From: Bacteroidia bacterium
GTDB lineage: Bacteria; Bacteroidota; Bacteroidia; 2-12-FULL-35-15
NCBI GenBank assembly: GCA_036386835.1
Contig: DASVUX010000011.1
Location: 192,291 to 256,290, forward strand
DNA length: 64,000 nt
Direction: 5' to 3'
The position numbers and the translations under genes were made by a program. The notes beneath the pieces are model-generated. The model made no database searches. It was not told where the DNA came from and saw only the letters and a program-made list of their open reading frames with translations. This document shows positions 5,634-55,336 of this stretch, piece by piece (positions within the stretch are counted from its first letter, which is position 1; every line of letters starts with the position of its first letter).

Positions 5634-6032
5634 TTAATTTAACGTTATTACCATTCCGGGAACCTTCCGTGCTTCTTTTCCGCTCTGAACCACCTGTACG
5701 GCCTCTATCAGCACTTTATTTCCCATCTTTTTCTTTTTATGCAGTTCCTGGATCGACTCCAGTGCCTGTTTACTGAATGCATTTCCTTTTGAAGGATATT
5801 CTATTTGTATTGTATCTTTTTTCTCGGCTTTCTGTATTGTAAGAATAAAAGAATTAATACTTACTCCTTTTTCATCCGCTATCAACTCCTTTTTGCAGGA
5901 CATAAATTCATCCCATGTCATGAAGCAATTGCCTGTTTTTCCGCACATTGAATACAATGGTTTTTCTTTTTGCGCACTGCCTGTAAAGGCAAATAACAAA
6001 AACAGGCAGATCAGCTGAAGCTTTACTCCCAC
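5634..6032 (-). CDS. hypothetical small secreted Cys-containing protein of 132 aa, inserted between nuoA and nuoB
   Basis: Signal-peptide-like N-terminus [21 protein letters not shown]. Several Cys (CGKTGNC, MSC). No recognisable family. Its start overlaps the nuoA stop by 10 bp, with a 32-bp gap before nuoB. Confidence 0.5.
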
Positions 6033-6569: not shown

Positions 6570-6602
6570 AAAAAAAATCGCCCGGTGATTTTCCACCGGG
6601 CG
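6570..6602 (-). terminator. rho-independent terminator after the 1868-aa adhesin gene
   Basis: Perfect 10-bp inverted repeat tcgcccggtg/caccgggcga at 6577-6586 and 6593-6602 with a 6-nt loop. It is followed on the minus strand by a 7-nt U-tract (plus-strand A-run at 6570-6576). Confidence 0.65.
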
Positions 6603-6625
6603 ACCTTATTTTCAACTGATTTACT

Positions 6626-9600
6626 TTAATAAACAACGATCTTTTTCACGGTTTCTTTTTTGCTGTTTGTCAGGCTGATGGTATAAATACCCTGGCCGTA
6701 TTCAACAACACTCATTTTCTTATTATAGCTACCCGAGAAGTCTTTCAGGTCGTCCTTAAAAATGAGCTGACCTAATGCATTGACGATCTCAACAGTATAA
6801 TTTCCCCTTTCGGCAGAATAGAACGAAATATTAAAGTTTCCGTCATTCGGGTTAGGGTAGATCAGTAATCCGTAAGGATTGGACATTTCAACAATTCCAA
6901 CACTTGTTATTACAACCGGGGCGGAGCCTGCAGATGCGCAGCCTCCTGTTGTAACTACAACTGTATACGTACCATTAGCAAGAACGGTATAGGTTTGGCC
7001 TGTAGCGCCTGCAATAGGATTACCATCTAAGTACCATTGATTTCCTGAAGCAGAGCTTGATGTAAGATCAAGTCCAAGCTGAGAAATTGTTGGTGTTGAT
7101 GGAGTAGAACCGGTATTGCCAACGTTAGCAGAAGTTGTAAATGTACAGCCATTTGCATCTGTCACCACTACAGGATATGTTCCTGCTGTGAAACCCGTAT
7201 AACTGGTGGTCGGAGTTGATCCGCTGCCATTTACTGAATAAGTGTAAGGCGCAGTTCCTCCTGTTGTGGCACCGATCATTATCGATCCGTCAGAAGCTCC
7301 GCAATTCGAATTCGTGCTGGTAACAACTGTTGCTGTCGGACCCGGTATATTTGTAACTGTTGCAGTTGTACTGAATGTACAAGAGTTCGCATCTGTGACA
7401 ACCACCGTATAAGTTCCTGCTGCTAGACCATTGTATGTAACGGTAGTTGTTGAAGCACCACCATTCACAGAGTACATATAAGCTGCTGTCCCTCCGGTTG
7501 TGTTTCCGATGTTAATCGCACCATTCGCGTTACCGCAAGTCGCATTCACAGTACTTACAGCCTGAGCTGTCGGGCCAGGGGTATTTGTAATTGTTGCCGA
7601 TGTGGTGAACATACATCCTGCAGCGTCCTTTACAATAACAGGGTACGAACCCGCTGCTAATCCCGTATAAGTTACGGTTGTTGTGAACCCGCTGCCGTTC
7701 ACAGAGTATGTATATGGACTTGTTCCGCCTGTAGCGGCTCCAATATTGATACTTCCGTTTGAAGCTCCGCACGTAGCATTAGTCGTGCTGGTCGATAATG
7801 CAGTCGGACCGGATGAATTAGAAACAGTTGCCGTTGTGCTGAACTGGCAACCGTTGGCATCCTGTACCACCACAGGATATGAACCTGCAGCTAAAGCCGT
7901 ATAAGATGTAGTTGTTGTAAAAGCACTTCCGTTAACTGAAAAAGCATACGGCCCTGTTCCGCCGGTGGTCGCACCTAATGTTATTGTTCCGGTGGACGCA
8001 CCACACGCGGTAGGCGTTGTTGTAGCTGCCTGAGCAGTTGGACCATTAACAACAGTTACAGCTGCTGTTCCTGCTATACTTGTACAACCGTTGGTAGTTA
8101 CAGTCACGCTGTAAGTTCCTGCCATGGCTGCTGTTGCAGAAGGACGGGTTGGATTCTGAACCGTTGATGTAAAGGCTGCAGGCCCTGTCCATGCATATGT
8201 TGCACCAGCTACTGTTGGTGTGGATAAAGTAATTGTAGAACCCACACAAACCGGGGTTGATGCTGTAACAGCAGGAGTTGCAGGAACTGCATTGATCACG
8301 ACTGTTGAAGTTCCCGCAGCACTTGTACAACCTCCCACTGTTACAGTCACACTGTAAGTTCCCGCCATTGCTGCTGTTGCAGAAGGACGTGTCGGGTTCT
8401 GAACTGCTGACGTAAATGAGGCCGGGCCTGTCCATGCATACGTTGCACCAGCCACCGTTGGTGTATTCAATGAAATTGTTTGACCTGCGCAATCAGGAGA
8501 GCTGGTTGTAACAGTTGGGGTTGCAGGAACTGCATTCACCACAACTGTAGCTGTGCCCGCTGCACTTGTACATCCGTTGGTTGTTACAGTCAAACTGTAA
8601 GTTCCTGCCATGGCTGCTGTTGCAGAAGGACGGGTTGGATTCTGAACTGCTGACGTAAATGAGGCCGGGCCCGTCCATGCATATGTTGCACCAGCTACTG
8701 TTGGTGTAGATAAAGCAATTGTAGAACCCACACAAACCGGGGTTGATGCTGTAACAGCAGGAGTTGCAGGGACTGCATTGATCACGACTGTTGAAGTTCC
8801 CGCAGCACTTGTACAACCTCCCACCGTTACAGTTACACTGTAGGTTCCCGCCATTGCTGCTGTTGCAGAAGGTCGTGTAGGGTTCTGAACTGCTGACGTA
8901 AATGAGGCCGGGCCTGTCCATGCATACGTTGCACCAGCCACCGTTGGTGTATTCAATGAAATTGTTTGCCCTGCGCAATCAGGAGAGCTGGTTGTAATTG
9001 TTGGCGTTGCAGGAATATTGTTTACAACTACCGCAACTGTACCGGCTAAGCTGGTACAGCCATTTGTTGTTACAGTAACGCTGTACGTTCCTGCCATTGC
9101 TGCTGTTGCAGAAGGACGGGTAGGATTCTGGACAGCTGAAGTAAAGGATGCAGGACCAGTCCATGCATATGTTGCACCCGCAACTGCAGGCGTTGACAAG
9201 GTAATTGTGGAGCCCACGCAAACCGGTGAATTAGATGTTGGAGCCGGAGTTGCCGGTAGTGCATTTACAACAACCGAAGCCGTTCCGGCAGCACTTGTAC
9301 ATCCGTTAACTGTAACAGTAACACTGTATGTGCCTGCCATTGCAGTTGTAGCAGAAGGACGGGTCGGGTTCTGAACCGCGGACGTAAATGAGGCCGGTCC
9401 TGTCCATGCATAAGTTGCACCAGTAACTGTTGGTGTATTCAGTGATATCGTTTGACCTGCACAATCAGGAGAGCTGGTTGTAACAGCCGGAGTGGATGGA
9501 ATTGCATTCACCGTCATTGTAATCGCGTTCGATGTAGCCGGGCTGCCGGTTACACCTGCAAGGTTTGAGGTCATTATTACTGTAACAACCTGCCCATTTG

Positions 9601-12232
9601 TTAAACCTGTTGTTGTGTAAGTTGGACTGTTCGTTCCAACGTTGGAGCCATTCACCTGCCACTGGTAGGAAGGTGATGTTCCTCCGTTTGTTGGAGTAGC
9701 GGTAAAAGTCACCGAAGTTCCTGCACAAATTGTGTTATCGGTATCGCTTGAAGCAATGTTCACGGAAGCAACAGCACCCGCAGTACTGTTAATGTTAATG
9801 TCATCCAGGTAAAGATTCTGACCGTAGCGGTTGGTAACTTCAAACTTAACAACAATGTTCTGTCCTACATACGAAGCCAGGTTTACTGTGTCTGTATCCC
9901 AGTCAGCTGCAACTGAAGGAGTGAAGGTAGCGTTTGTAGTCCCGCTTGTTGCCAGCTGTACGCCTTTTTTATAATACACTGCGGAGCCGTATGTTGCACC
10001 GCAATCCGTGGAAACATAGACTCTTAATTCATCATGATAATTATTAGGAGATGCGGCATCATTATAATATCTGTATGCTCTTTTGAATGTCATTCTTGGA
10101 GCAGTGGCACCAACAAGACTAATAGGACTTGAGAGAAGGTTATCCACCTGCATTGTGTCCGTATTATAGTTCCAGCACTCAATCGCAGCGCTGCCTGCGG
10201 CACTACCCGTGTTACCTGCGGCAGGTCTTCTTACAAGACCTTTGGCACCTGCTGTTCCCCATGCAGCTGAAGGTGCATCAGCATTCTGAACCGACCAGCC
10301 TGTGGGAGGAAAAGTTGCGCCTTCAAAATTCTGCACAACCGGTAATGCTCCTCCTGATATTGGAGTTATATAACTCGTCTTTATTTCACTGTCATTCCCG
10401 CTTGCGTTTGTAGCTAGAAGTGTGACTGTGTAAGGTCCAACGGTATTAAATTGCACCTGCGGGTGCTGGGAAGCTGCAGTTGTACCTCCAACATAAGTAA
10501 CAGAAGTCGGGCTGAATGTCCATGCCCACGAAGTCGGGGTGTTTGTGGAAATATCAGTAAACGTTACTGTTGAACCTACGCAGGGCGCTGTGTTGCTCGC
10601 TGTAAAATTTGCTACCGGAGCCGCCGGACCGCATGTAGGGAGCTGAAAGGAAAAGATCCGTGTTCTCGCTGCGCTGGCACCTGTGGTACCTCCCATGTAT
10701 TCTGAAGTACACCAGAAGGTTACTCCGTCAGGGTCAAGCACAAGTTGTGAATAGTCACCATCACGGTTAACACCGCCTGTTTGCGAACCTGTACCTGCAA
10801 TTGCGACAGACTCTGTTACAGGCATTGTACCTAACGGATCACAAGGCCTGCGTCCAGCATAATACAATCCAGGATAAATAGATGTCGCATCCGATTTCAG
10901 GTATGTAAATCCGATTGCACCGTTATTGTCCATCGCGATTCCACCCATCCATCTTGTAGCAGCATCAGGTGTGTATGTACCTTCCTGGTAAATTGACCAC
11001 GCTCCTGTTGATTGATTCTGGCGTAATTCGCACCATTTTAAGCTTCTTTGAGATGCACTTATCCTAACGGCCCATGTCAGACATACTGTATTGTAACCTG
11101 CCCATGATTTCCACTGGGCACGGTAAAGTACGATGCCACCGATGCCATCAAGTTTTTGAGTAGTGTTGGGCTGCGGGATATCATCCCAGCTTGGGCTGTA
11201 TGAACCGTCAAACGGAGCGGTAGGAAGCACCCCGGCTGAAGTAATAGTAGCTGTTGGAGTTGTGGGCGTCCAGTTAACAGCCATTTTATAAATGTTTACG
11301 GCATCCGTGAATCCGCCACCCCATCCGTTATCGGAATAAGAGAAGATAGGACAAGGTGTTCCTGCGGGAGGCAAAACCCCGTCAGAAGCATCTCCTGGCA
11401 TTGGTACAAAGAACCCGCCACCCTGCGGAGGCGAAAAGTTAGTATAAACCGCTCTTGCCGCCGGATTTCCGGCAAGCATTGCTGTTCTTTCAAAAACGAA
11501 TACCCTCTGAGTCTGGTTGGAAGTCATGTAATACCCATCCTGCCAAACGCCAAACTTTAAATAATCAGGAAACTCAGGTGAAGTGAAAGTGTATGTATAA
11601 TATGAGCCTAAAGGATTATTTGTCTGCGATATCGCAATGAACATATTATTGCCGGCAGTTCCGAACTGTGAAATAAACCAGCGGTCAGCCGCTTTATCAT
11701 ACATGATGATAGGGTCACCGTCATTAGAAGTTGCCGGGGACCACAAGCTGCCCACGTTCGCTGTGGAGAGAAGCGCTCCTGTGGATTTGTTATATACCCT
11801 GAAGGTGCAGGCATTAATTGCCTGGATATAATGAGTTGAGCTTACGGATCCGGAAGGGTCCATAGGGCGGAAACCTGCTGCATTTCCTCCCAGGAAGTTC
11901 ATTATCGGGGCTTTATTGGGAACCGTACCCATTTCTCTTTGTATTGTGGCTTCATCATTCCCGTATGCCGGGCCATCCTTCTCAACTGTAAACGGGAAAT
12001 TATGCGGCTTCCGCTTTTTCCTGTCGGGGGATTCCTTCCATGCTTTAGGATGCGGGGCATTGTCATCAACGGGATTTTCTGCTGCGAGCTCACTTAAAGG
12101 ACGGGTAATGTGAAAATCCGAGCATTGGATAGCAACGGAACCGCTGCTAACTACTTGGTTCATCGGAAGTTTTTGTGCCGACAAAGCACTGAACATACAA
12201 ACGCCCGAAAGAATAAGTGTGATTTTTTTCAT
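6626..12232 (-). CDS. giant secreted cell-surface protein (1868 aa) with type-A T9SS C-terminal sorting domain, PKD/Ig-like domains and tandem Thr/Ala-rich repeat modules
   Basis: Signal peptide MKKITLILSGVCMFSALSAQ. C-terminus ...YTISLTNSKKETVKKIVVY typical of Por_Secre_tail (TIGR04183). Six ~81-aa modules (..SPDCAGQTISLNTPTV.GATYAWTGPASFTSAVQNPTRPSATAAMAGTYSVTVT..GC) and four ~76-aa modules (GCxFSTTATVxNxxGPTA). Confidence 0.8.
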   Translation of the reverse strand: MKKITLILSGVCMFSALSAQKLPMNQVVSSGSVAIQCSDFHITRPLSELAAENPVDDNAPHPKAWKESPDRKKRKPHNFPFTVEKDGPAYGNDEATIQREMGTVPNKAPIMNFLGGNAAGFRPMDPSGSVSSTHYIQAINACTFRVYNKSTGALLSTANVGSLWSPATSNDGDPIIMYDKAADRWFISQFGTAGNNMFIAISQTNNPLGSYYTYTFTSPEFPDYLKFGVWQDGYYMTSNQTQRVFVFERTAMLAGNPAARAVYTNFSPPQGGGFFVPMPGDASDGVLPPAGTPCPIFSYSDNGWGGGFTDAVNIYKMAVNWTPTTPTATITSAGVLPTAPFDGSYSPSWDDIPQPNTTQKLDGIGGIVLYRAQWKSWAGYNTVCLTWAVRISASQRSLKWCELRQNQSTGAWSIYQEGTYTPDAATRWMGGIAMDNNGAIGFTYLKSDATSIYPGLYYAGRRPCDPLGTMPVTESVAIAGTGSQTGGVNRDGDYSQLVLDPDGVTFWCTSEYMGGTTGASAARTRIFSFQLPTCGPAAPVANFTASNTAPCVGSTVTFTDISTNTPTSWAWTFSPTSVTYVGGTTAASQHPQVQFNTVGPYTVTLLATNASGNDSEIKTSYITPISGGALPVVQNFEGATFPPTGWSVQNADAPSAAWGTAGAKGLVRRPAAGNTGSAAGSAAIECWNYNTDTMQVDNLLSSPISLVGATAPRMTFKRAYRYYNDAASPNNYHDELRVYVSTDCGATYGSAVYYKKGVQLATSGTTNATFTPSVAADWDTDTVNLASYVGQNIVVKFEVTNRYGQNLYLDDININSTAGAVASVNIASSDTDNTICAGTSVTFTATPTNGGTSPSYQWQVNGSNVGTNSPTYTTTGLTNGQVVTVIMTSNLAGVTGSPATSNAITMTVNAIPSTPAVTTSSPDCAGQTISLNTPTVTGATYAWTGPASFTSAVQNPTRPSATTAMAGTYSVTVTVNGCTSAAGTASVVVNALPATPAPTSNSPVCVGSTITLSTPAVAGATYAWTGPASFTSAVQNPTRPSATAAMAGTYSVTVTTNGCTSLAGTVAVVVNNIPATPTITTSSPDCAGQTISLNTPTVAGATYAWTGPASFTSAVQNPTRPSATAAMAGTYSVTVTVGGCTSAAGTSTVVINAVPATPAVTASTPVCVGSTIALSTPTVAGATYAWTGPASFTSAVQNPTRPSATAAMAGTYSLTVTTNGCTSAAGTATVVVNAVPATPTVTTSSPDCAGQTISLNTPTVAGATYAWTGPASFTSAVQNPTRPSATAAMAGTYSVTVTVGGCTSAAGTSTVVINAVPATPAVTASTPVCVGSTITLSTPTVAGATYAWTGPAAFTSTVQNPTRPSATAAMAGTYSVTVTTNGCTSIAGTAAVTVVNGPTAQAATTTPTACGASTGTITLGATTGGTGPYAFSVNGSAFTTTTSYTALAAGSYPVVVQDANGCQFSTTATVSNSSGPTALSTSTTNATCGASNGSINIGAATGGTSPYTYSVNGSGFTTTVTYTGLAAGSYPVIVKDAAGCMFTTSATITNTPGPTAQAVSTVNATCGNANGAINIGNTTGGTAAYMYSVNGGASTTTVTYNGLAAGTYTVVVTDANSCTFSTTATVTNIPGPTATVVTSTNSNCGASDGSIMIGATTGGTAPYTYSVNGSGSTPTTSYTGFTAGTYPVVVTDANGCTFTTSANVGNTGSTPSTPTISQLGLDLTSSSASGNQWYLDGNPIAGATGQTYTVLANGTYTVVVTTGGCASAGSAPVVITSVGIVEMSNPYGLLIYPNPNDGNFNISFYSAERGNYTVEIVNALGQLIFKDDLKDFSGSYNKKMSVVEYGQGIYTISLTNSKKETVKKIVVY
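7130..8040. repeat. intragenic tandem repeat family 2 (about 4 x ~228 bp) inside the 1868-aa gene; coordinates approximate
   Basis: Protein-level modules ..GPTAxAxxTxxATCGAxxGxIxIGxxTGGTxPYxYSVNG...YTxLAAGxYxVxVxDAxGCxFxTxAxVxN repeated four times. Confidence 0.55.
8040..9500. repeat. intragenic near-identical tandem repeats (6 x 243 bp, alternating A/B sub-modules) inside the 1868-aa gene; coordinates approximate
   Basis: Nucleotide blocks at 8046-8531 and 8532-9017 are almost identical over about 486 bp. The encoded modules 3 and 5 are identical at protein level. Confidence 0.7.
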
Positions 12233-12344
12233 GAGGTATTTACTATTTTAGTTTAGAGGATGCTAAAGGTAAAAAATTGAATATATAATTCCAAGAGAAA
12301 AGCATCACAAAAACACCTCAAATTAAGGTTTCGGAACCGTTCAC

Positions 12345-12376
12345 ATAAAAAAAGCCTGTCCGGACGAACAGGCTTT
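12345..12376 (-). terminator. rho-independent terminator after the 2338-aa gene
   Basis: Inverted repeat aagcctgt / acaggctt (12352-12359 and 12368-12375) with an 8-nt loop. A plus-strand A-run precedes it, giving a U-tract on the minus strand. It lies immediately after the stop at 12396. Confidence 0.55.
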
Positions 12377-12395
12377 TAACAAAGAACAAGAATGA

Positions 12396-15300
12396 CTAAT
12401 ATACAATCATCTTCTTAACCGTTTCCGATTTTGAATTTGTAATGCCAATAGTATAGATGCCCTGCCCGAATTCAGTCACAGTTAATTGACGGATATAGCT
12501 TCCTGTGAAATCATTCAGTGTTTCAGAATACACCTTTTGGCCCAGTGCGTTCATGATCTCGATCCGGTAGTCGGCCTTTTCGTTACTAAAGAACGACAAG
12601 GAAAACTCCCCATTGTTCGGATTCGGATAAACCATAAATTCATTGGCTGCGGCTCCTTCACTTATTCCTACAGTTGTAACAGATGTAACTGCAGAGGATA
12701 CTGATGAGCATCCATTAACTGTTACTATTACAGTGTAGTTGCCATTTGCGAGGAATGTATAATTCTGACCTGTTGCTCCAGCTATTGGCGATCCATTCAG
12801 ATACCACTGATTACCGGAAGCTGCACTTGATGAAAGCACAGAACCGGATTGAGTTATTGCCGGGGCCGGCGGAACAGGATTAACCATCATGCCAATACTG
12901 TTGCTTGCCGCTGCTGAAGGGGTCGCACATAATAATGAAGATGTGAGTGTGCACGTAACTACATCACCGTTATTTAAAGCCGAAGAAGAAAAAGCCGGGG
13001 AATTGCTTCCTGCTGCAACACTGTTTACCTGCCATTGATAGACCGGGGAGCCACCTTCATTATTAACCGAAGAGCTGAATGTAACAGGATCGCCAGCACA
13101 AATAATATTTGAAGGTGATACGGAAATCATAACCGAAGGTGTAACGTTGGTTCCGACACTCATAGTAATCCCTGCAGAAGTTGCAGCCGCGGGGCTTGCA
13201 CACACAGCACCAGAAGTCATCGTGCAGGAAACCACATCACCGTCAGCCAATGTTGAAGATGAATAAACCGCAGCATTAGACCCTGCATTCACACCATTCA
13301 CCTGCCATTGATAGGCTGGCGAATTTCCCCCGTTATTCCCGGAAGCCTGGAATGTAATTGGCTGTCCGTTGCACATAGGGTTCGATCCTGAAGCAATTGA
13401 CACTGTCAGCGAAGGGATTACTACAGGATTAACAGTCATTGTAATGGCATTCGATGCTATTGTTGCAGGCGATGCACATGTGGCATTGCTCGTCAGTACA
13501 CAACTAATTATATCGGCATCAGTCAAAGCGGAATTGCTATAAGAAATTCCTGTTCCGGCATTCGACCCATTCAGCAGCCATTGATAAGCAGGACTTGAGC
13601 CGCCATTGGTTGCAACCGCTGTAAATGATGCTGCCGACCCTGCACACATCGGGTTGCTGCCTGAAGTTTGGGTAATCGTAATTGCAGGAGTTACGCCCGG
13701 GTTTACGGTTACCGTTGTAGTTCCTGCGGGGCTGGTACACCCGGAAGCGGTGACAGTCACACTATAGGTCCCTGCCATAGCAGCTGTAGCAGGTGAACGG
13801 GAAGGGTTCTGCAATGTCGAACTGAAAGATCCCGGACCACTCCATGAATAAGATGCGCCCGCAACAGTTGATGCGGTGAAGTTAATTGACGTGCCTGCAC
13901 ATACAGGGGCATTACTTCCTGCTACAGGTGCGGAAGGAACAGGATTCACCGTCATGGTTATTCCTGTGGAAGTTACACTTGCAGGACTTGCGCACCCTGA
14001 GGAGGAAGTCATGGTACATGTAACAACCTGTCCGTTTGCAAGCTGTGATGAAGAATAAGTAGTACTGTTTGATCCTACATTTGAACCGTTCACCTGCCAT
14101 TGATATACGGGAGATGTTCCTCCATTTGCCGGAGTTGCAGTAAACACAACATTTGATCCCGCACATAACGGATTCGTTCCTCCTGTCTGCACCACAGAAA
14201 CGCCAGGTGTAACAGTTGAATTGACTGCAACTACTGTTGTACCTGCCAGGCTGGTACATCCGCTTACCGTAACTGTTACACTGTAGGTTCCTGCCATGGC
14301 TGCTGTAGCTGAAGGCCTGGTCGGGTTCTGAAGTGCGGATGTGAACGAAGGTCCGGTCCAGCTATAGCCAGCACCGACCACTGCGGGTGTGCTGAGATTG
14401 ATTGAAGTGCCTGTACACACAGGGGTGTTGCTTGACGCAGTAGGCGTTGAAGGGATAGGCGTAACACCAATGCTCACAGTAGAAATATTACTCTGGCATC
14501 CGTTTACAGTAACCGAGAGTGAATAAGTTCCCGCCATAGCTGAAGTAGCGTTGGTTAATGCCGGAGGATTCCTCACGGATGCGGAATAACTGTTCGGGCC
14601 TGTCCATGAATATACCGCTCCTGCAATACTATTGGATGTCAGCGTAATAGTACCGCCTGCGCAAACCGCAGCCGGGGTTGTGCTTCCATTTATATTCGCT
14701 ATTGGTGCAGTTGGGGTAGCATTCACAGTTACCGTAGCGGTGCCCGCTGGACTGGAACATCCGTTAGTCGCGACCGTGACACTGTATGTTCCGCTCATTG
14801 CTACAGTTGCCCCCGCTCTTGCCGGATTCTGTGCCGTACTTGTAAATGATCCCGGACCCGTCCATGAATATGCCGCTCCTGTTACAGCAGGTGTGCTAAG
14901 GTTGATAGTAGCGCCTGAACATAAAGGAGAATTGGTTGTAACTACCGGGGTTGCAGGGGTTTGGTTTACTGTCGCTACAGTAGTACCGGCAGCGCTAGTG
15001 CATCCTCCAACAGTTATTGTTAAGCTGTATGTTCCAGACATTGCAGCTGTAGCAGAGGTCAATGAAGGATTCTGCAAAGCGGATGTGAACGATAAAGGAC
15101 CGGACCAGCTATAAGTTGCACCGGTAATGGTGCCTGTGGTTAAATTTAATGCGGACCCTGAACAAACAGGTCCGTTATTGGCCGCAGCCGGTGCGGCTGG
15201 TGTTGGATTTACAATAACATTCGCTGTACCAGCTGCACTTGTACATCCTCCAGAAGTTACAGTTACACTATATGTGCCCGCCATGGCTGCTGTTGCAGCA

Positions 15301-18300
15301 GGACGTGTCGGGTTCTGTACTGCTGATGTAAAGGATGCAGGGCCGCTCCATGCATAAACTGCGCCCGCAACTGCCGGGGTAGATAAAGTAATTACAGATC
15401 CCTCGCACACAGGGCTGGATGCTGTGACAGCTGGCGTTGCAGGGACTGCATTCACAACTACGACAGCTGTACCGGCTGCACTTGCACAGCCCCCCACAGT
15501 TATTGTTAAGCTGTAAGTTCCCGCCATGGCTGCCGTTGCAGAAGGCCGTGTTGGATTTTGTACTGCTGATGTAAAGGAAGCAGGACCGGTCCAGCTATAC
15601 GTTGCCCCCGTTATTGCGGGCGTTGATAAAGATATGGCAGACCCCGCACAAACCGGTGAACTTGCTGTTACTGCAGGGGCAGCGGGTGTTGAATTTACTG
15701 TGACCGCAACCGTTCCAGCTACGCTGGTACACCCCCCGGCAGTGACCGTTAAGCTATAAGTCCCTGCCATAGCTGAAGTAGCAGATGCTAAAGAAGGATT
15801 CTGCAAAGCGGATGTAAATGATGCAGGGCCGCTCCAGGAATAGGTAGCCCCGGAAACCGCAGCTGTGGAAAGATTGATAGGCGTTCCGCTGCAGACAGGC
15901 GAATTAGATGCAGGTGCAGGTGTAGCGGGCAATGCATTCACTGTCATTGTGATTGCGTTTGAAGTTGCCGGACTGCCGGTAACACCCGGTAAATTTGATG
16001 TCATCTGGCATGTAACAACCTGGCCGCTGGTTAAAGTGCTTGTAGAGTATGTGGCACTGTTTGTTCCGACATTTGCTCCGTTTACTTTCCATTGGTAAGA
16101 AGGTGTTGTGCCGCCATTGACTGGTGTGGCAGTAAATACAGCAAGCGCCCCTGCACATATCGGGTTGGTACCTGTCGTCTGGGCAATGCTTACACTTGCT
16201 GTTGGTGAGCCTGCACCGGTAAGATTAATATTATCAAGATAAAGCATCTGCCCCCAGCCTGATCTGCTGGTAAATTTGAGAGTCACATTAGCTTGTCCTG
16301 CATACGAGCTTAAGTTCACTGTTTCTGTTCTCCATTGTGTATTCGTTGGAACGAACATGCTGGTTGCATTATCAGGTGCTGTTTGCAATCCTGTATAACC
16401 GCCTTTATTATAAACGGGTGTCCAGGTCACCCCGCAATTCGTGCTGATGTAAACAATAAGCGAATCTGTATACGTACCATTGTAACGTGCATAAGCCACA
16501 TCAAATGTCAGCTGTGCAGAAGTAACGCTTGCAAAAGAATATTTTGGGGTAATAATTTCGTCAATTGTTCCGACAATAGATGCTGCCGGGGAATAATTAT
16601 CCATTGCAACGCTGGAGGTGCTTGTGCCGAACCCGCCCACTGCAGTACTCTGGGCCCAGGTAACATCTGTATCCGCGTTGGTCTGGTACCATCCGGCCGG
16701 AAGATATGGTCCCTGGAATCCTTCAGCCAAAGGCAAAGCAGAGGTTCCGCTAACTACTATATACCCCGTTTTCGTTATGGGGTTACTACCGTTTGTATTG
16801 GTTGCCGTAAGTGTAACATTATACGTACCGGGAGTATTATAACAAATGTTGGTAGGGTTCTGAAGGGTTGATGAAGTGGTTACAGCACCGGTAAAGGTCC
16901 AGCTCCAGCCTGTTGGCGCACCACTTGAAAGATCGGTAAAATTAATGCAATCACCGGCACAGATATTTGTCCTGTTCGCTGAGAAATCTGCGACAGGAGG
17001 TGAAGTCCCCGGAGTAGCGAGATCTGACTGCCATACTCCACGGCCAAAAGTTGCTGCGCGCAACTTAGATGCGCCATAATGAATCTCCAGCTCTCTTACG
17101 CTTACGTTAGGAAGCCCTGTGTTGTAAGCGGTCCAGGCAGCTGAAGAGTTATCCCGGGTATAAACTCCAACATCCGTTCCGACATATAATACATCCGTTG
17201 GTGAACTGTTTTGGTAAACGATGCAGTTGGCTGGAATGTTCGGGAGGCCTGTTGAATAATTGGTCCATGTAACACCGGCATCAGGCGAATACCATACTTT
17301 ATTGGCAGCAGAATATCCTGAAAATGTTACCCAGACATGGGCAGGGTTGTTAGAAGCGACAGTTATATAAGTAATGGCAGCCGATGCAACAGGAAGTGTT
17401 CCTGTCCTGTCAACAAAACTTGTCCCGCTGTTAACAGATGCATAGAACTTGTTGATCTTTGCCATATACAGATAGTTACTGTCGGTTGGAGCATAAGCCA
17501 GTGCACAGATATTTCCTGTTCCACCTGTCACTGTCCCTAAAGCCGTCCATGCGGTCCCGCGGTTCCTGGAACGATAAGCCTGAGCCTTACCAACAATCAT
17601 TGTTGAAGCCTTTTGCGGGTTGAGAATGTATGGAGTTACCCAATCACCATCAGCATTAACACCTGTTCCACCGGATTGAACGATCGTTGTTGTTAAATTT
17701 CCACCTGTTGTAGTCCTGTTGATCTCACCATAATACAACTCTCCGTATTGAACATTTGCATTTGACCAGTCAATCGCTGCTTCCATTCCATCACCGCCTA
17801 AAGGCCTTGACCATGTAGTTGTACCGCTCCACCTGTTGGTGCCATTATCCTGCCAGCCTGTAAGAAGTAAATTAGCATTTGTTGCTGATAAACCTATCCT
17901 GTAGATCTGGGCAATCTGTAAGCCGTTGCTAAGATCGCTCCATGCGGTTCCCGAATTTGTGGTTTTGAACAGACCGCCATCACAGCCCGCGAAATAAGTT
18001 GTAGAGCTCCCGGGAATAAATTCCAAAGCATGGCAATCTGCATGCACATAAGGGGCACCGCTTCCTGTCCAATGTGCATTGATTGTCCAGTTAGTCCCTC
18101 CGTTTGTCGAGCGCCAGATATTCACCCCGCCCACAATGACTATGTCTGCATTTGTTGGCGAGGCAGCCAGGGCAAGATCATACCAGCCCTGGCCGCCTGC
18201 ATCGGAACCTGTGTTAGACCAACCAAGTATGTTTGGAGTTGTTGCACGCGTTGTAAAGTTCAACCCGCTGTCGGTTGAGCGGTATAACCCCTGGAACCCA

Positions 18301-19412
18301 TCATCAGACGCGAGAGACCCCAGGACATAAACGTATGCAGGGTTCGCTGCAGTAACAGCAATTGACAAACGGCCTACTACGGTATTTGCAGGAAGCCCTG
18401 AAGTAATATTTGTAAAAGTTGTACCGCCATTTGCCGAGCGGTAAAAACGTGTTGTACTTGCAGCGTACACAACGGTGGTATCGCCCGGTTTATATTCTAT
18501 GTCTTTTATATTTGCAGCTGCAGTTGCTATCTGAGTCCAGTTAGCTCCGGCATTTATAGTTCTGTAAACCCCATTGCTGGTAGCGGCAAAGATCGTGTTC
18601 GGATTAACAGGGTTCATTAATAAACGGCTGATCACTCTTCCGTTTGTTACAAGCCAGTTCAGTCCTGTAGGTGACCAGGTAGTTCCACCGTTAGTGGATT
18701 TAAGGACACCCACACTGTATGTATCAGATGCGTCACCATCACCTGTAGCGAGGTACATGACCTGGTTATTCGTAGGATGGATCGCCACATCGGTGCAGCC
18801 TATCACGGCAAGATTATCAGTATTGGTTGTCCAGCTCGTACCACCGGTAGTTGATTTCCAAAGGCCTCCGCCGGGGGAACCGACCCAGATCGTATTTGTT
18901 GTTGCAGGATCGAAGCGTACAAAATTTACCCTTCCGGCACCACCGCCACCAGTAGGTATTGATGTTGTCGGGCCGATAATGCTCCAGTTGGCAGCCAGCG
19001 TATTTGGTGTTGGACCTCCTGACATGCCACGGCTCTGGCCGGATGACTGGCTGGAATAAAAGTCTTCGTAATAGTCGTTCATCGCACTGATCATAACAGA
19101 ACGGTCTCCTGTAGGATACACCCGTGGACGCATAAAATCTTCCCAGCGCTTAAACGCTTTCCAGCCCGGAAGTTTTTGCTTCATAATTAAAGGTGCGTGT
19201 CCCGGAGCGCTCGCTGATTTGGTCTGAGTAACAGGACCCGGAACTTCAACGTACACAGCCCTGGAAGGATCTGACCAATACTGTTCAAATGATTGCTGAA
19301 CGGAATAAAAATTCACGGAAGGATCTTCCATCATGCTTTTCCAGCCCTGGGAATAAACTGCAGTACTAATAAGAATGGCTGAGCATAATAAAAAGGGTAT
19401 GCGTTTTTTCAT
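12396..19412 (-). CDS. giant secreted protein (2338 aa): N-terminal BNR/Asp-box beta-propeller region, PKD domain, jelly-roll-like domain, many Ig-like repeat modules, type-A T9SS C-terminal domain
   Basis: Signal peptide MKKRIPFLLCSAILISTAVYSQ. At least 10 BNR-like repeats (STNGGTTWS, SANGGTTFT, STDSGLNFT, STNGGTNWT, TTNSGTAWS, SRNRGTAWT, SPDAGVTWT...). PKD-like WSWTF motif. About 8 modules paralogous to those of the upstream gene (..SPVCxGSxIxLSTPAVxGATYSWxGPASFTSAxQNP..AMAGTYS.TVT.GGC). Several YQWQVNG-type Ig-like modules. C-terminus ..YTIGITNSKSETVKKMIVY. Confidence 0.8.
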   Translation of the reverse strand: MKKRIPFLLCSAILISTAVYSQGWKSMMEDPSVNFYSVQQSFEQYWSDPSRAVYVEVPGPVTQTKSASAPGHAPLIMKQKLPGWKAFKRWEDFMRPRVYPTGDRSVMISAMNDYYEDFYSSQSSGQSRGMSGGPTPNTLAANWSIIGPTTSIPTGGGGAGRVNFVRFDPATTNTIWVGSPGGGLWKSTTGGTSWTTNTDNLAVIGCTDVAIHPTNNQVMYLATGDGDASDTYSVGVLKSTNGGTTWSPTGLNWLVTNGRVISRLLMNPVNPNTIFAATSNGVYRTINAGANWTQIATAAANIKDIEYKPGDTTVVYAASTTRFYRSANGGTTFTNITSGLPANTVVGRLSIAVTAANPAYVYVLGSLASDDGFQGLYRSTDSGLNFTTRATTPNILGWSNTGSDAGGQGWYDLALAASPTNADIVIVGGVNIWRSTNGGTNWTINAHWTGSGAPYVHADCHALEFIPGSSTTYFAGCDGGLFKTTNSGTAWSDLSNGLQIAQIYRIGLSATNANLLLTGWQDNGTNRWSGTTTWSRPLGGDGMEAAIDWSNANVQYGELYYGEINRTTTGGNLTTTIVQSGGTGVNADGDWVTPYILNPQKASTMIVGKAQAYRSRNRGTAWTALGTVTGGTGNICALAYAPTDSNYLYMAKINKFYASVNSGTSFVDRTGTLPVASAAITYITVASNNPAHVWVTFSGYSAANKVWYSPDAGVTWTNYSTGLPNIPANCIVYQNSSPTDVLYVGTDVGVYTRDNSSAAWTAYNTGLPNVSVRELEIHYGASKLRAATFGRGVWQSDLATPGTSPPVADFSANRTNICAGDCINFTDLSSGAPTGWSWTFTGAVTTSSTLQNPTNICYNTPGTYNVTLTATNTNGSNPITKTGYIVVSGTSALPLAEGFQGPYLPAGWYQTNADTDVTWAQSTAVGGFGTSTSSVAMDNYSPAASIVGTIDEIITPKYSFASVTSAQLTFDVAYARYNGTYTDSLIVYISTNCGVTWTPVYNKGGYTGLQTAPDNATSMFVPTNTQWRTETVNLSSYAGQANVTLKFTSRSGWGQMLYLDNINLTGAGSPTASVSIAQTTGTNPICAGALAVFTATPVNGGTTPSYQWKVNGANVGTNSATYSTSTLTSGQVVTCQMTSNLPGVTGSPATSNAITMTVNALPATPAPASNSPVCSGTPINLSTAAVSGATYSWSGPASFTSALQNPSLASATSAMAGTYSLTVTAGGCTSVAGTVAVTVNSTPAAPAVTASSPVCAGSAISLSTPAITGATYSWTGPASFTSAVQNPTRPSATAAMAGTYSLTITVGGCASAAGTAVVVVNAVPATPAVTASSPVCEGSVITLSTPAVAGAVYAWSGPASFTSAVQNPTRPAATAAMAGTYSVTVTSGGCTSAAGTANVIVNPTPAAPAAANNGPVCSGSALNLTTGTITGATYSWSGPLSFTSALQNPSLTSATAAMSGTYSLTITVGGCTSAAGTTVATVNQTPATPVVTTNSPLCSGATINLSTPAVTGAAYSWTGPGSFTSTAQNPARAGATVAMSGTYSVTVATNGCSSPAGTATVTVNATPTAPIANINGSTTPAAVCAGGTITLTSNSIAGAVYSWTGPNSYSASVRNPPALTNATSAMAGTYSLSVTVNGCQSNISTVSIGVTPIPSTPTASSNTPVCTGTSINLSTPAVVGAGYSWTGPSFTSALQNPTRPSATAAMAGTYSVTVTVSGCTSLAGTTVVAVNSTVTPGVSVVQTGGTNPLCAGSNVVFTATPANGGTSPVYQWQVNGSNVGSNSTTYSSSQLANGQVVTCTMTSSSGCASPASVTSTGITMTVNPVPSAPVAGSNAPVCAGTSINFTASTVAGASYSWSGPGSFSSTLQNPSRSPATAAMAGTYSVTVTASGCTSPAGTTTVTVNPGVTPAITITQTSGSNPMCAGSAASFTAVATNGGSSPAYQWLLNGSNAGTGISYSNSALTDADIISCVLTSNATCASPATIASNAITMTVNPVVIPSLTVSIASGSNPMCNGQPITFQASGNNGGNSPAYQWQVNGVNAGSNAAVYSSSTLADGDVVSCTMTSGAVCASPAAATSAGITMSVGTNVTPSVMISVSPSNIICAGDPVTFSSSVNNEGGSPVYQWQVNSVAAGSNSPAFSSSALNNGDVVTCTLTSSLLCATPSAAASNSIGMMVNPVPPAPAITQSGSVLSSSAASGNQWYLNGSPIAGATGQNYTFLANGNYTVIVTVNGCSSVSSAVTSVTTVGISEGAAANEFMVYPNPNNGEFSLSFFSNEKADYRIEIMNALGQKVYSETLNDFTGSYIRQLTVTEFGQGIYTIGITNSKSETVKKMIVY
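14250..15950. repeat. intragenic diverged tandem repeats (about 7 x 243 bp) inside the 2338-aa gene, paralogous to the repeats at 8040-9500; coordinates approximate
   Basis: Protein modules NxxPAxPAxxxxSPVCxGSxIxLSTPAVxGATYSWxGPASFTSAxQNPxxxSATxAMAGTYSxTVTxGGCxSxAGTxxVxV. Confidence 0.55.
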
Positions 19413-19749
19413 AGCATTTTATTTTAACGGAATAACGAATCTAATTTTTAATTCGCGTATTATCAAGTTTTTATATCGCTTTTAGACGAATAATCTGTTT
19501 TAATAGACAATATTTTAAAACCGCACAGAATCCTTATAATAAAGGAAAGCTGATTAGTCCGAAAGTGGGTTGATTCTCTTTTTACTATTGAAAGCTATCT
19601 GTTTTGCCTTGTTTCTGCCATCTGGCATGTTTTTAGAAACTGATGATTTGGTTTAAACATTCTGATGTTGATTACTTTATTTCGATATTCTGAATGCCGA
19701 GTATTTGTTTTATAGCTTTATCAAAACATTTTTAAAACGTTCTGTATTT

Positions 19750-21081
19750 ATGGTGAAAGAGAAAAAAATTTTCGTTCTTGATACGTCTGTTATCATTTAT
19801 GATCACATGGCGGTTAAAAATTTCAAGGAACATGATGTTGTAATACCCATTACTGTTTTGGAAGAGCTCGACAATTTCAAAAAAGGGAATGACACAAAAA
19901 ACTTCGCTGCAAGAGAATTCACACGCTATATCGATAAGATCTCAATGGGGAACACTCTCCAGGACTGGATCAACATTAATGGCAAAGGCCATGGAATGAT
20001 CAAGATAGAGATGCATACTAGTTCGAAGATCGATGCTGAAAAGATCTTCGGGGAAAGGAAAGGCGATCACCGGATCCTGAATACAGCAATGTATGTTGCC
20101 GAACAATATCCTAAAAGGAAAGTAGTGATGGTGACCAAGGATATCAACCTTCGCATCAAGGCCAAATCTTTAAAGCTTACTGCTGAAGATTATGAAACAG
20201 GGAAGATCAAGGATGTAAATGAACAGCTTTATACCGGCAGGAGTGAGATCCAGAAGGTTGCTCCCGAAGTGATCAATGAGATCTACGAAAAAGGATTTTG
20301 CGAAACATCAAAACTTCTCAAGAAGCAGAAACCTTCTTCCAATCATTTCTATACGCTGAAGAACGGCTCTAAATCTGTTCTCGCGTCATACAGCCCAACA
20401 AAAGATGTCATTGAACGCGTTAAAAAAGTTACTGCCTTCGGGATCAACCCAAGAAATGCGGAACAGGCTTTTGCACTTGATGCCATTTTAAATCCCAACA
20501 TAAAACTTGTTTCTATACAAGGTGTTGCCGGAACAGGAAAAACCTTGTTATCCCTTGCTGGCGCGCTGGAGCAAAGGCGAAACTATCACCAGATCTATCT
20601 TGCGCGGCCGATCGTTCCGCTGAGCAACAAGGACATAGGTTATTTACCGGGAGATATTAAATCGAAGCTGAACCCATATATGGAACCGTTATGGGATAAC
20701 CTTAAATATATAAAAAACCAGTTCAGCGAAAAGGACCGGGAGTATAAGCAGATCAATGAAATGGTGGAACATGAGAAGCTTGTTGTATGCCCGCTTGCTT
20801 ATATCCGTGGAAGAAGCTTATCCGATGTATTCTTTATCGTTGACGAAGCTCAGAACCTGACCCCGCATGAAGTTAAAACTATTATTTCACGCGCAGGAGA
20901 AAACACTAAGATGATCTTCACAGGTGATATCTACCAGATAGATACTCCATATCTTGATACTCAGAGTAATGGATTGTCCTACCTGATTGACAAACTTAAA
21001 GATCAAAACCTGTACGCTCACATTACACTCGAAAAAGGTGAGCGCTCGGAACTGGCAAATCTTGCCAATGAATTCCTCTAG
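19750..21081 (+). CDS. PhoH-like ATPase with N-terminal PIN domain (YlaK-type)
   Basis: N-terminal PIN-like KKIFVLDTSVIIYD...VIPITVLEELD. Walker A GVAGTGKTLLSLAGA; Walker B FFIVDEAQNL. The longest ORF begins at 19705 (MFYSFIK...), but the in-frame ATG at 19750 (MVKEKKIFVLDTSV) matches typical PIN N-termini. Confidence 0.85.
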   Translation: MVKEKKIFVLDTSVIIYDHMAVKNFKEHDVVIPITVLEELDNFKKGNDTKNFAAREFTRYIDKISMGNTLQDWININGKGHGMIKIEMHTSSKIDAEKIFGERKGDHRILNTAMYVAEQYPKRKVVMVTKDINLRIKAKSLKLTAEDYETGKIKDVNEQLYTGRSEIQKVAPEVINEIYEKGFCETSKLLKKQKPSSNHFYTLKNGSKSVLASYSPTKDVIERVKKVTAFGINPRNAEQAFALDAILNPNIKLVSIQGVAGTGKTLLSLAGALEQRRNYHQIYLARPIVPLSNKDIGYLPGDIKSKLNPYMEPLWDNLKYIKNQFSEKDREYKQINEMVEHEKLVVCPLAYIRGRSLSDVFFIVDEAQNLTPHEVKTIISRAGENTKMIFTGDIYQIDTPYLDTQSNGLSYLIDKLKDQNLYAHITLEKGERSELANLANEFL

Positions 21082-22234: not shown

Positions 22235-22265
22235 TTTGTTTGTTAAGTTGAAGGTATATAATCGA

Positions 22266-22475
22266 TTAGCTTTCTGATATTTCTTCCAGGTCCATCTTAC
22301 AAACCGGGCATTGCCCTGCTTTATCAAATTTTTCCTCTGTGCATTTCATCGGGCATTGATACTGGGTTTTTATATGTTCGTCTTCAACCTTTGCCGGTTC
22401 GGCACTTTGACTGCAACTAACAGCCAGAACAAGCGTAACAAAATACATTGTCAATATTAGGGTATGTTTTCTCAT
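22266..22475 (-). CDS. small lipoprotein with a four-Cys heavy-metal-binding domain (HMBD-like)
   Basis: Lipobox VLAVSC. Motif YQCPMKC....AGQCPVCKMDL matches the CPMxC...CPxCxM pattern of the N-terminal metal-binding domains of Bacteroidota CusB/CzcB-like and stand-alone HMBD proteins. Confidence 0.5.
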   Translation of the reverse strand: MRKHTLILTMYFVTLVLAVSCSQSAEPAKVEDEHIKTQYQCPMKCTEEKFDKAGQCPVCKMDLEEISES

Positions 22476-34841: not shown

Positions 34842-34979
34842 TTGTATTGATTTTGTGTAATAACTCAAAGAAAATTAACAGTTATATAAAACCGATAATA
34901 TATATCGTTTGCTAAAATAGTCTTTTTATTTAAATTACAATGCAGCGGGGAAATTCCAGCTCTCCCCTGCTTTCCCCTA

Positions 34980-38753: not shown

Positions 38754-38888
38754 CAAATCTGATTTTTTAAAGTTTACGGGAGTAAAAGTACAAAAACCTT
38801 TGATAGCGGCTACGTTTTTTTCGTACATCAGAAGTCCAGCACTGTATTTAAAAATCTGACCTGCAATTCAATACAAAAAGAGCAAACC

Positions 38889-39881: not shown

Positions 39882-39884
39882 AAT

Positions 39885-50045: not shown

Positions 50046-50048
50046 ATT

Positions 50049-51602: not shown

Positions 51603-51758
51603 AATTTATCTTCTATACAAATTTAATCAAAAATGCAGCGGTTTCAAAACAGAAGAAGCTCCTCATCTGATTTTTCCTGCTTTTTTAACGTCTTTTGCAA
51701 TGTCATTAATTTCAGGTCTTTCAGAATAATGTTATACTTTTATAAAAAACAACGTACC

Positions 51759-55172: not shown

Positions 55173-55336
55173 AAATCCATCGCACATACGTGGACTCTGT
55201 TCAGCATAACCATTATTTACTGCAGCAGGTAATGAAGAGATTGCTTCGTTAGTGCCTCGCTCCTTCGGTCGCCATAGGCTTGCTGCAGACGATGCGCAAT
55301 GACGTTCCGTATCAATGATCCTGGTCTCCGGCATAC

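Follow-up and report, generated by a model that had tools for sequence, protein, structure and literature searches.

Two adjacent genes of an uncultured Bacteroidota bacterium code for putative T9SS type-A surface proteins with predicted beta-propeller heads and old, diverged Ig-like repeats

Organization of the gene pair and its surroundings

Two long co-directional open reading frames follow each other on the minus strand of the window, the whole 64-kb stretch of DNA that was analysed. Gene 2 (12396..19412) codes for a T9SS type-A cargo protein of 2338 aa and gene 1 (6626..12232), defined by its ORF and translation and by Pfam and NCBIfam matches, for one of 1868 aa. Both ORFs, which a preliminary description had listed, are real. 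The gene 1 product is identical to NCBI protein HEX8515063.1 ("T9SS type A sorting domain-containing protein", from a Bacteroidia MAG) and the gene 2 product to HEX8515064.1. The order of domains is head, PKD, choice-of-anchor J, YQW, six Ig_7, four SprB, NQW and CTD in gene 1, and head, PKD, choice-of-anchor J, YQW, seven Ig_7, YQW, Ig_7, three YQW, NQW and CTD in gene 2. All features described below are encoded by the minus strand.

A terminator-like hairpin is found 19 nt past the stop codon of each gene. Its stem, which is followed by a T run, has 12 bp behind gene 2 (12350..12377) and 15 bp behind gene 1 (6574..6607). The hairpin behind gene 2 points to separate transcription of the two genes. 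The region 3' of gene 2 carries the terminator and then gene 1, while the gene 1 terminator is followed by nuoA-G. At least seven further CTD-bearing cargo genes are encoded within the window, together with a PorP/SprF gene (55337-56353) and an OmpA-like gene. Type-B cargo genes lie at 30552-39881 and 56354-63988. No gene coding for the T9SS core (SprA, PorV, PorU, PorK-N) was found within the 64 kb.

Sorting domains and export

The sorting domain of gene 1 (6629-6862, aa 1791-1867) scores 55 bits with PF18962 and 41.6 bits with TIGR04183; that of gene 2 (12399-12632, aa 2261-2337) scores 47.5 and 39.7 bits, respectively. The curated cut-offs are 27 bits for PF18962 and 23 bits for TIGR04183. 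The earlier assignment of both proteins to type-A T9SS cargo is thus upheld by a Por_Secre_tail/TIGR04183 domain above the curated cut-offs at the extreme C-terminus. At the other end, a Sec signal peptide can be read by eye from the translation of gene 1 (aa 1-19, MKKITLILSGVCMFSALSA/QK) and of gene 2 (MKKRIPFLLCSAILISTAVYS/QG). The AF2 models of both proteins feature an N-terminal helix of low confidence.

Secretion and anchoring of both proteins are expected from these signals. The signal peptide would direct export by Sec, the T9SS would recognise the type-A CTD with the PorV shuttle, and the product would then be anchored to the surface or released. Proteins with type-A CTDs use the PorV shuttle, with static anchoring or release as the outcome (PMC12618676). 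The organization is that of the Flavobacterium johnsoniae TIGR04183/PF18962 cargo proteins RemA and AmyB, which likewise have a signal peptide, carry their functional domain N-terminally and end in a type-A CTD. RemA and AmyB carry other head domains, and the stalks of genes 1 and 2 are much longer. The Bacteroidota-type O-glycosylation motif D(S/T)(AILVMT) is present just twice per protein, too seldom to argue for a stalk heavily glycosylated at this motif.

The N-terminal heads

Structure prediction of the N-terminal domains, proposed in the preliminary description, models both heads as beta-propellers, seven-bladed in gene 1 and double seven-bladed in gene 2. The predicted gene 1 head (10643..12145, aa ~30-530) is preceded by the signal peptide. 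Its family comprises ~3,200 clusters at 50% identity (3,209 representatives of 355-4,799 aa), with the head N-terminal in nearly all of them. Across orders its members are 55-67% identical, and over 100 positions, with Asp, Arg, Trp and Glu prominent among them, are invariant. The family has no Pfam or NCBIfam model. With phmmer, the gene 1 head had no match among PDB sequences, and a profile of gene 1-type proteins matched PDB entries in stalk and CTD columns only. By its model this head is a propeller with seven blades, and it belongs to an uncharacterised Bacteroidota family that is very large and highly conserved. That so large a T9SS head family is still without a Pfam or NCBIfam model may be of use to annotators. 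The gene 2 head family is also large, and in both families the members' stalks are usually much shorter (typical length 610-885 aa / 850-1400 aa in two family searches).

The gene 2 signal peptide and a helical N-terminal extension (19008-19412) precede a head (17013..19007, aa ~136-800) that is modelled with a pLDDT of 86 as a GH74-like pair of seven-bladed beta-propellers. The best 25 Foldseek matches of this model in the PDB are all GH74 proteins (E 1e-27 to 3e-31, TM 0.6-0.7, 15-19% identity), and the head profile matches GH74 sequences of the PDB with E 1e-27. The head also scores 70 bits with the Pfam Sortilin-Vps10 model and 103 bits with an NCBIfam glycosylhydrolase model whose cut-off is 175. 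A BNR/Asp-box propeller region with at least 10 repeats had been described here. The count holds in the sense that 11 relaxed Asp-box-like motifs are found, but just one of the 11 is canonical and the fold is the GH74-like propeller pair.

The same two-domain seven-bladed fold is found in the GH74 xyloglucanases of C. thermocellum (Xgh74A, 2cn2), Cellvibrio japonicus (5fkq) and Niastella koreensis (6p2l). The gene 2 head differs from them by its low identity, its T9SS stalk, the helical N-terminal extension of its family and the loss of the first catalytic Asp. In the profile alignment, Asp70 ("ARADIGG") of 2cn2, which is Ala in the D70A mutant 2cn3, lies opposite Pro180 ("GSPGGGLW"). At least 90% of 36 members of the gene 2 head family have this Pro. 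The region of the second catalytic Asp (Asp480 of Xgh74A) was left unaligned by HMMER and a 198-aa fragment gave no GH74 match. D478-G479-G480, in the first blade of the second propeller and at the pseudo-symmetric position, is invariant in the family. With the first catalytic Asp lost, this head more probably binds glycans or acts as a non-canonical enzyme than works as a xyloglucanase; it may keep a residual or altered enzymatic activity, since the second catalytic Asp is unaligned. The adhesin or glycan-binding role suggested earlier for the two proteins may hold.

A shared chassis behind unrelated heads

In each gene the head is followed by a PKD domain and a choice-of-anchor J domain, in agreement with the PKD/jelly-roll content reported earlier. 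The gene 1 PKD (10364..10624, aa 537-623) scores 29.5 bits with PF18911 and 24.4 bits with PF00801, and that of gene 2 (16755-17003) 60 bits with PF00801. The choice-of-anchor J domain, a MAM-like jelly roll, is found at 9743..10345 in gene 1 (aa ~630-830; NF038128, 52.7 bits, and a weak InhA-like MAM match) and at 16173-16745 in gene 2 (58.3 bits), for a NF038128 cut-off of 30. The YQWQVNG Ig-like module, likewise correctly placed in both genes by the preliminary description, occurs once in gene 1 (9506..9742, aa 831-909, motif at aa 856; weak PKD_3, Ig_7 and Ig_3 matches). The gene 2 protein has five YQWxxN modules, one of which lies at 13944-14216 and three at 12858-13700. An NQW Ig module precedes the sorting domain (6863-7087 in gene 1, BiPBP_C-like with a weak BiPBP_C match; 12633-12857 in gene 2).

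The chassis is collinear in the two proteins. Gene 1 and gene 2 share 43% aa identity in PKD, 35% in choice-of-anchor J, 78% in the first YQW module, 66% in NQW and 58% in the CTD. The heads are unrelated, so the genes, which had been taken as tandem paralogs, are paralogous only from the PKD domain onwards.

Gene 1 carries in addition four 78-aa SprB repeats (7088..8047, aa ~1396-1715; PF13573, 73 bits over four stretches) that are 58-65% identical to each other at the nucleotide level. This repeat is shared with SprB and the giant gliding adhesins of Cytophaga and Flavobacterium. SprB itself has ~6,500 aa, a type-B CTD (CHU_C) and a cognate SprF, whereas genes 1 and 2 have type-A CTDs and propeller heads.

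The 81-aa modules

The most numerous element of the stalks is an 81-aa (243-bp) module with the motif YxWxGP...AMAGTYS. Gene 1 has six tandem copies (8048..9505). The eight copies of gene 2 (13701..15935; PF19081, 54 bits) are seven in tandem (m1-m7, 14217-15935) and, after a YQW module, one more (m8, 13701-13943). A conserved Cys pair is found at positions 15 and 69 of each module. The match to Ig_7 (PF19081) reaches 54.3 bits over three stretches in gene 2 and 27.0 bits in gene 1, just under the threshold of 27.3. Ig_7 is the Pfam "Ig-like domain CHU_C associated", typical of giant gliding adhesins.

The module array of gene 1 matches GhpA (PDB 9flp_A) with 1737 bits over 12 significant stretches, and a profile search matches it with E 1e-65. 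GhpA of Aureispira sp. CCB-QB1 is a T9SS substrate of 5,898 aa that forms a heptamer; it has an adhesin-like hook head and a stem of 52 Ig-like repeats, disulfides join adjacent domains, and its gene is followed by those of PorP-like GhpB and PorE-like GhpC (bioRxiv 10.1101/2024.01.29.577165). The GhpA Ig-like module of ~81-83 aa (Y.WTGP..F....NP......AG.Y.V.V...GC.S) is of the same type as the modules of genes 1 and 2. By these matches, the 81-aa modules are assigned to Pfam Ig_7 and to the module type of the stem repeats of the solved GhpA, a link to a known structure that is useful for annotators. The proteins are also alike in having the functional end N-terminal and distal and the sorting signal C-terminal. 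Unlike GhpA, genes 1 and 2 combine 6-8 of these modules with Ig domains of other types, have beta-propellers as heads and end in a type-A CTD, and no PorP/PorE gene adjoins them.

Divergence of the repeats

The gene 1 array is built of three 486-bp A/B superunits (9020-9505, 8534-9019, 8048-8533). TRF finds at 8064-9512 a period of 243 with 5.9 copies (74% matches) and a period of 486 with 3.0 copies (85% matches). Of the core codon pattern TGGACNGGNCC there are 10 occurrences, where chance would give 0.37. The 486-bp blocks at 8046-8531 and 8532-9017 had been called almost identical; they share 443 of 486 positions (91.2%) and differ at 43, the longest stretch without a mismatch being 89 bp, and the third block is 78-80% identical to the other two. 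Among single modules, the nucleotide identity is 95% for m3/m5, 88% for m4/m6 and 67-83% for the remaining pairs. The closest superunit pair has a dS of 0.23 and the other pairs have 0.8-1.0, with a dN/dS of 0.1-0.2. Exact repeats at 486-bp spacing in gene 1 have 89, 54, 53 and 53 bp. The gene 2 modules are 46-78% identical in aa sequence and their longest exact self-match has 23 bp.

Between the genes, the modules of gene 1 and gene 2 m3 have 75-84% aa identity. The claim that near-identical ~243-bp modules are common to both genes stands for the module type, six plus eight copies of the same 81-aa unit, but not for the DNA, in which the best module pair is 78% identical and the longest common exact string has 20 bp. 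The dN/dS values indicate that the protein similarity of the arrays is kept by purifying selection, the silent sites having drifted apart. In Ig-like stalk modules, peptide motifs can be nearly the same without the DNA being prone to recombination.

Orthologous gene pairs

Orthologues were compared at the family or genus level, the range given by the available genome contigs. Among these contigs no same-species genome was found (best 71% identity), and among metagenome contigs scanned with gene 1 no same-species locus (best 69%). Orthologous gene pairs have 8 + 6 modules in locus L005 and 7 + 3 in locus L002. The number of modules is 1-6 in gene 1-type and 7-8 in gene 2-type orthologues, which shows that it changes over evolutionary time. 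The eight modules of gene 2 keep positional orthology with those of the L005 orthologue (m3, m6, m7), whose head is 76% identical. In a neighbour-joining tree the gene 1 modules group with gene 2 m3 and its orthologue. Recent exchange between the adjacent genes of L002 and L005, whose modules reach 84-93% aa identity, was considered and dropped, as the best L002 pairs have a dS of ~1.0 and 78-81% nucleotide identity. This likeness of modules between genes would reflect constraint, or at most an old event.

Interpretation

The reading that we favour, with a probability of about three in four, is that of two separately transcribed T9SS cargo genes whose products combine a propeller head, a PKD/choice-of-anchor J/Ig stalk and a type-A CTD, the stalk being a spacer with old, diverged repeats. 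The N-terminal beta-propeller would be the working end of each protein. Behind it comes the shared chassis of PKD, choice-of-anchor J jelly roll, ~12-14 Ig-like modules and sorting domain. The Ig_7 modules, of the type that builds the rigid GhpA stem, most likely serve as a spacer and keep the head at a distance of tens of nanometres from the outer membrane. The arrays would stem from old tandem duplications, a two-module 486-bp unit having been amplified to three copies in gene 1. Purifying selection would keep the module proteins alike while silent sites diverge, and the number of modules would shift between species rather than act as a rapid on-off or length switch. Genes 1 and 2 would then code for ordinary secreted surface proteins of an already known kind, and not form a rapidly switching array.

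Other readings give the heads and stalks a more specific role. An active, surface-displayed GH74 xyloglucanase or endoglucanase encoded by gene 2, with gene 1 as an accessory enzyme for the same substrate, is unlikely. GH74 is the best structural and profile match of the gene 2 head, D478-G479-G480 is invariant in its family, one gene 2 homologue is automatically annotated as "Xyloglucanase Xgh74A", and three related genomes have the two head types side by side. Against this stand the near-invariant Pro in place of Asp70, the 15-19% identity to GH74 enzymes and the sub-threshold NCBIfam glycosylhydrolase score, and the flanks of the gene pair carry no PUL, SusC/D or other CAZyme genes. Among 146 loci that carry a gene 1-type head, just 3-6 have one of the gene 2 type nearby, and a general linkage of the two head families was rejected on this count. 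Still less probable are grappling hooks of the GhpA kind, side-by-side multimers forming rigid fibres that catch prey or particles. The homology of the 81-aa modules to the GhpA stem is clear, their Cys 15 and 69 recall the disulfides reported between GhpA domains, and GhpA is likewise a T9SS substrate. The 6-8 modules compare with 52 in GhpA, however, the heads are propellers and not an adhesin-like hook, the CTD is of type A, neither gene adjoins a PorP (GhpB) or PorE (GhpC) gene, and the same Ig module recurs in phage proteins and in many T9SS proteins of unrelated kinds. In a further reading, the gene 1 head would represent an unrecognised family of T9SS-secreted seven-bladed-propeller enzymes or lectins, paired in this lineage with a catalytically altered GH74-like head, both on rigid GhpA-type stalks, as a long-reach device to capture a polymer or other cells and not a generic adhesin. 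It is doubtful.

The spacer reading has also to be weighed against two accounts of the repeats themselves. The preliminary description had proposed a phase-variable length locus with exchange between the paralogs, in which slipped-strand mispairing or unequal recombination would often alter module number and stalk length and move modules between genes. The exact repeats at 486-bp spacing in gene 1, the different module numbers of orthologues and the clustering of gene 1 modules with gene 2 m3, which fits an old inter-gene transfer, are in line with it. So is the sole variant seen, a 24-bp in-frame deletion (7516-7539) in a gene 1 SprB repeat of one sample (P0122 / L167), which is bounded by 5 bp of microhomology and indicates that small slippage occurs or is polymorphic. 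Frequent recombination would homogenise the repeats, yet the best pair is 91.2% identical and the others have a dS of 0.8-1.0; gene 2 has exact self-matches of at most 23 bp and an array layout conserved with its orthologue. All public assemblies spanning the gene 1 array have six modules, with no module-number variant among them, a weak test as they are clonal (0 differences in 14-27 kb). Nor are the two genes likely to exchange sequence at present, as their identity does not exceed 78% and their exact matches do not exceed 20 bp. A contingency role is accordingly quite unlikely, and with silent sites near saturation the locus should not be listed as a candidate for phase variation. Gene 1 may now and then gain or lose one superunit, since an exact repeat of 89 bp, here spaced at 486 bp, has the length that RecA-dependent unequal recombination needs. 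That the repeats are an assembly artefact, with a collapsed or falsely duplicated block, is extremely improbable. Short-read unitig assemblies do break within the array, but the blocks differ at 43 of 486 positions, ~27 of them synonymous, with the reading frame kept and a dN/dS of 0.2. Two JGI contigs (266 kb, 130 kb) and a 645-kb NCBI MAG contig carry the same six-module sequence, and orthologues from other MAGs have comparable arrays.

The warning that this region troubles short-read assembly is borne out. Two Logan short-read contigs both stop at position 8939 of the window, 30 nt into the 89-bp exact repeat (8880-8968), and the breaking of de Bruijn contigs at this repeat is a real assembly hazard.

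Gene organization and export of the two proteins

The two tandem genes probably code ordinary T9SS type-A cargo proteins, a reading given a probability of about 0.75. Their ORFs lie where the preliminary description had placed them, at 6626-12232 (gene 1, 1868 aa) and 12396-19412 (gene 2, 2338 aa), both on the minus strand. The gene order on this strand is gene 2, gene 1 and nuoA-G (6394 to 221); the PhoH/PIN gene at 19705-21081 is divergent. The strong terminator-like hairpin found 3' of each gene (12377-12350 for gene 2, 6607-6574 for gene 1) suggests that they are separate transcription units. Note that an ORF of 132 aa (5634-6032, minus strand) lies between nuoA and nuoB within the nuo operon; the last 10 nt of nuoA lie within it, the JGI annotation likewise predicts it as a gene, and Pfam gave no match.

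Both proteins have a signal-peptide-like amino terminus and a carboxyl-terminal type-A sorting domain (CTD) scoring above the curated cut-offs (PF18962 55 bits and TIGR04183 41.6 bits in gene 1; 47.5 and 39.7 bits in gene 2). They are collinear from the PKD domain to the carboxyl terminus, with amino acid identities of 43% in the PKD domain, 35% in choice-of-anchor J, 78% in the first YQW module, 66% in the NQW module and 58% in the CTD. The choice-of-anchor-J jelly roll scores 52.7 bits (gene 1) and 58.3 bits (gene 2) against NF038128 (cut-off 30). Gene 1 features four additional 78-aa SprB repeats (PF13573, 73 bits), and gene 2 has five YQW modules to the single one of gene 1. Type-A CTDs use the PorV shuttle, the outcome being static anchoring or release (PMC12618676). 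Both proteins would take this route by means of their CTD and be anchored statically or released, while their Ig-like modules would act as a stalk or spacer holding the propeller head off the outer membrane; we infer secretion, anchoring, spacer role and head function alike for both proteins.

The 81-aa module array

Delineation by motif and HMM identifies six 81-aa modules in register in gene 1 (8048-9505) and eight in gene 2, where a tandem run of seven (14217-15935) is accompanied by a single module at 13701-13943. The module-core codon pattern TGGACNGGNCC has 10 occurrences, all within these two genes, where chance would give 0.37. Tandem Repeats Finder reports a single array at 8064-9512 with periods of 243 (5.9 copies, 74% matches) and 486 (3.0 copies, 85% matches). 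The gene 1 modules are of two alternating subtypes, and the real repeat unit is therefore 486 bp, present three times.

The repeats are real; their earlier description as near-identical fits the protein sequence but not the nucleotide sequence. The closest blocks, 8046-8531 and 8532-9017, are identical at 443 of 486 positions (91.2%, longest exact run 89 bp), the third block has 78-80% identity to them, and gene 1 module pairs range from 67% to 95%. Between the genes, module nucleotide identity is at most 78% and the longest common exact string is 20 bp; the longest exact self-match within gene 2 is 23 bp. Nei-Gojobori estimates are dS 0.23 and dN 0.047 for the closest pair of 486-bp units in gene 1, dS 0.81-1.04 and dN ~0.08 for the remaining pairs, and dS 0.82 and dN 0.11 for the best gene 1/gene 2 pair. 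These identity levels and rates show that the almost invariant peptide ATYAWTGPASFTSAVQNPTRPSATAAMAGTYS is kept by purifying selection acting on old duplicates; its origin by recent duplication or homogenisation was rejected (dS 0.23-1.04 versus dN 0.047-0.11).

Head domains and relation to known systems

The two heads are unrelated. The gene 1 head (10643-12145) is a seven-bladed propeller domain; at E<=1e-30 it has ~3,200 representatives of 50%-identity clusters, in which it is nearly always the amino-terminal part of a T9SS protein 355-4,799 aa long. No sequence match was obtained in Pfam, NCBIfam or PDB, so that the domain constitutes a large unannotated family; recognition of this very large family lacking a Pfam or NCBIfam model is a useful by-product of the analysis. 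The gene 2 head (aa ~136-800) was predicted with a pLDDT of 86. At least 10 BNR repeats had been claimed for it: 11 relaxed Asp-box-like motifs, a single one canonical, are present over 14 blades. The GH74-like propellers are preceded by a helical extension (19008-19350, aa ~23-135), conserved in the family with invariant K88, E91, R97, P100 and G102, absent from GH74 enzymes and without a match in Pfam.

The best 25 Foldseek matches of the gene 2 head model in PDB are all GH74 xyloglucanases (E down to 3e-31, TM 0.6-0.7, identity 15-19%), and its family profile matches GH74 chains (E 1e-27). Two other readings draw on known systems. An active GH74 enzyme is unlikely. The catalytic Asp70 of Clostridium thermocellum Xgh74A, within the ARADIGG motif of 2cn2 and replaced by Ala in the D70A mutant 2cn3, lies opposite Pro180 of GSPGGGLW, a residue that at least 90% of the family retain, and no alignment was obtained over the second catalytic Asp; the head was therefore not assigned to the GH74 enzymes. 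A multimeric hook resembling the Aureispira grappling hook protein GhpA is more doubtful still. The 81-aa module corresponds to Pfam Ig_7 ("Ig-like domain CHU_C associated"; 54.3 bits in gene 2 and 27.0 bits, slightly below threshold, in gene 1), carries two conserved Cys at positions 15 and 69, and among PDB sequences GhpA (9flp) is matched by the gene 1 array at 1737 bits, which usefully ties the module to a solved structure. GhpA is a T9SS substrate of 5,898 aa whose stem of 52 Ig-like repeats forms a rigid heptameric tube, adjacent domains being joined by disulfides; its gene is followed by PorP-like and PorE-like genes (bioRxiv 10.1101/2024.01.29.577165). The stem module is the sole feature in common: unlike GhpA, the two proteins have 6-8 module copies, propeller heads and a type-A CTD, and their genes have no adjoining PorP or PorE gene.

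Variation of the arrays

Proteins identical to these two are encoded in two JGI metagenomes (3300034031 and 3300034032), two Logan assemblies and one Bacteroidia MAG at NCBI (HEX8515063.1, HEX8515064.1). The contigs compared match the window at 100% identity across 14-27 kb, the single exception being a 24-bp deletion in gene 1 of 3300034032 (7516-7539; aa 1564-1571, ATCGNANG). It falls within the third SprB repeat, removes the conserved Cys of that repeat, is flanked by 5 bp of microhomology and may reflect either polymorphism in the population or a variant of the assembly. The array had been said to make short-read assembly unreliable, and the independent Logan contigs from SRR10954988 and SRR10954971 bear this out: both end at 8939, 30 nt inside the 89-bp exact repeat 8880-8968, a k-mer graph break due to the array. 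That the repeats are themselves an assembly artefact is scarcely credible.

A contingency locus, in which copy number would vary to give phase-variable adhesin length, is improbable, slightly more so than the enzyme. No module-number variant was found among the assemblies compared, a weak test as the samples represent one clone, and the GTDB representative set includes no genome of the same species. Two related Bacteroidota MAGs also have the two head types side by side and in the same direction. Locus L005 (6179-17913) has the order of the window, 8 + 6 modules (gene 2-type + gene 1-type) and head identities of 76% and 75%, respectively; L002 (10001-20981) has the reversed order, 7 + 3 modules and identities of 70% and 82%. 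Further gene 1 orthologues have 1-2 modules, and module number thus shifts on an evolutionary time scale. The gene 2 array is old and stable, since it shows positional orthology with L005 at modules m3 (88%), m6 (77%) and m7 (82%). Gene 1 modules have no positional correspondence to those of orthologues and group together with the m3 type, so that this array was built or turned over inside its own lineage. The head pairing is specific to this lineage: among 146 loci that have a gene 1-type head, just 3-6 have a gene 2-type head as well. The preliminary description of the locus stands in part as observation, and its interpretation is supported in part.

Other T9SS cargo genes in the window

The window abounds in T9SS cargo genes, coding type-A proteins at 21146-22327 and 51633-52865 and type-B proteins at 30552-34868, 34980-38828, 38889-39881, 56354-60685 and 60908-63988. 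The type-B (CHU_C) gene at 56354-60685 (minus strand; DUF7948 and four PKD domains) is directly followed by a PorP/SprF gene (55337-56353, minus) and then an OmpA-like gene (53187-55355, minus), an order matching the cargo-shuttle-anchor arrangement of GhpA/GhpB/GhpC and of Flavobacterium johnsoniae type-B operons. The three consecutive type-B genes on the minus strand within 30552-40415 code proteins of 1438, 1282 and 330 aa that contain Ig_7, SprB and PKD domains. An ECF-type sigma-70 gene (39885-40415) lies directly upstream, and the four genes may form a sigma-factor-controlled adhesin operon. At 45783-51602 (minus strand), the Pfam scan identifies a HisKA_2-type histidine kinase of 1420 aa with at least six PAS domains, preceded by a MORN-repeat protein and followed by a LytTR response regulator.
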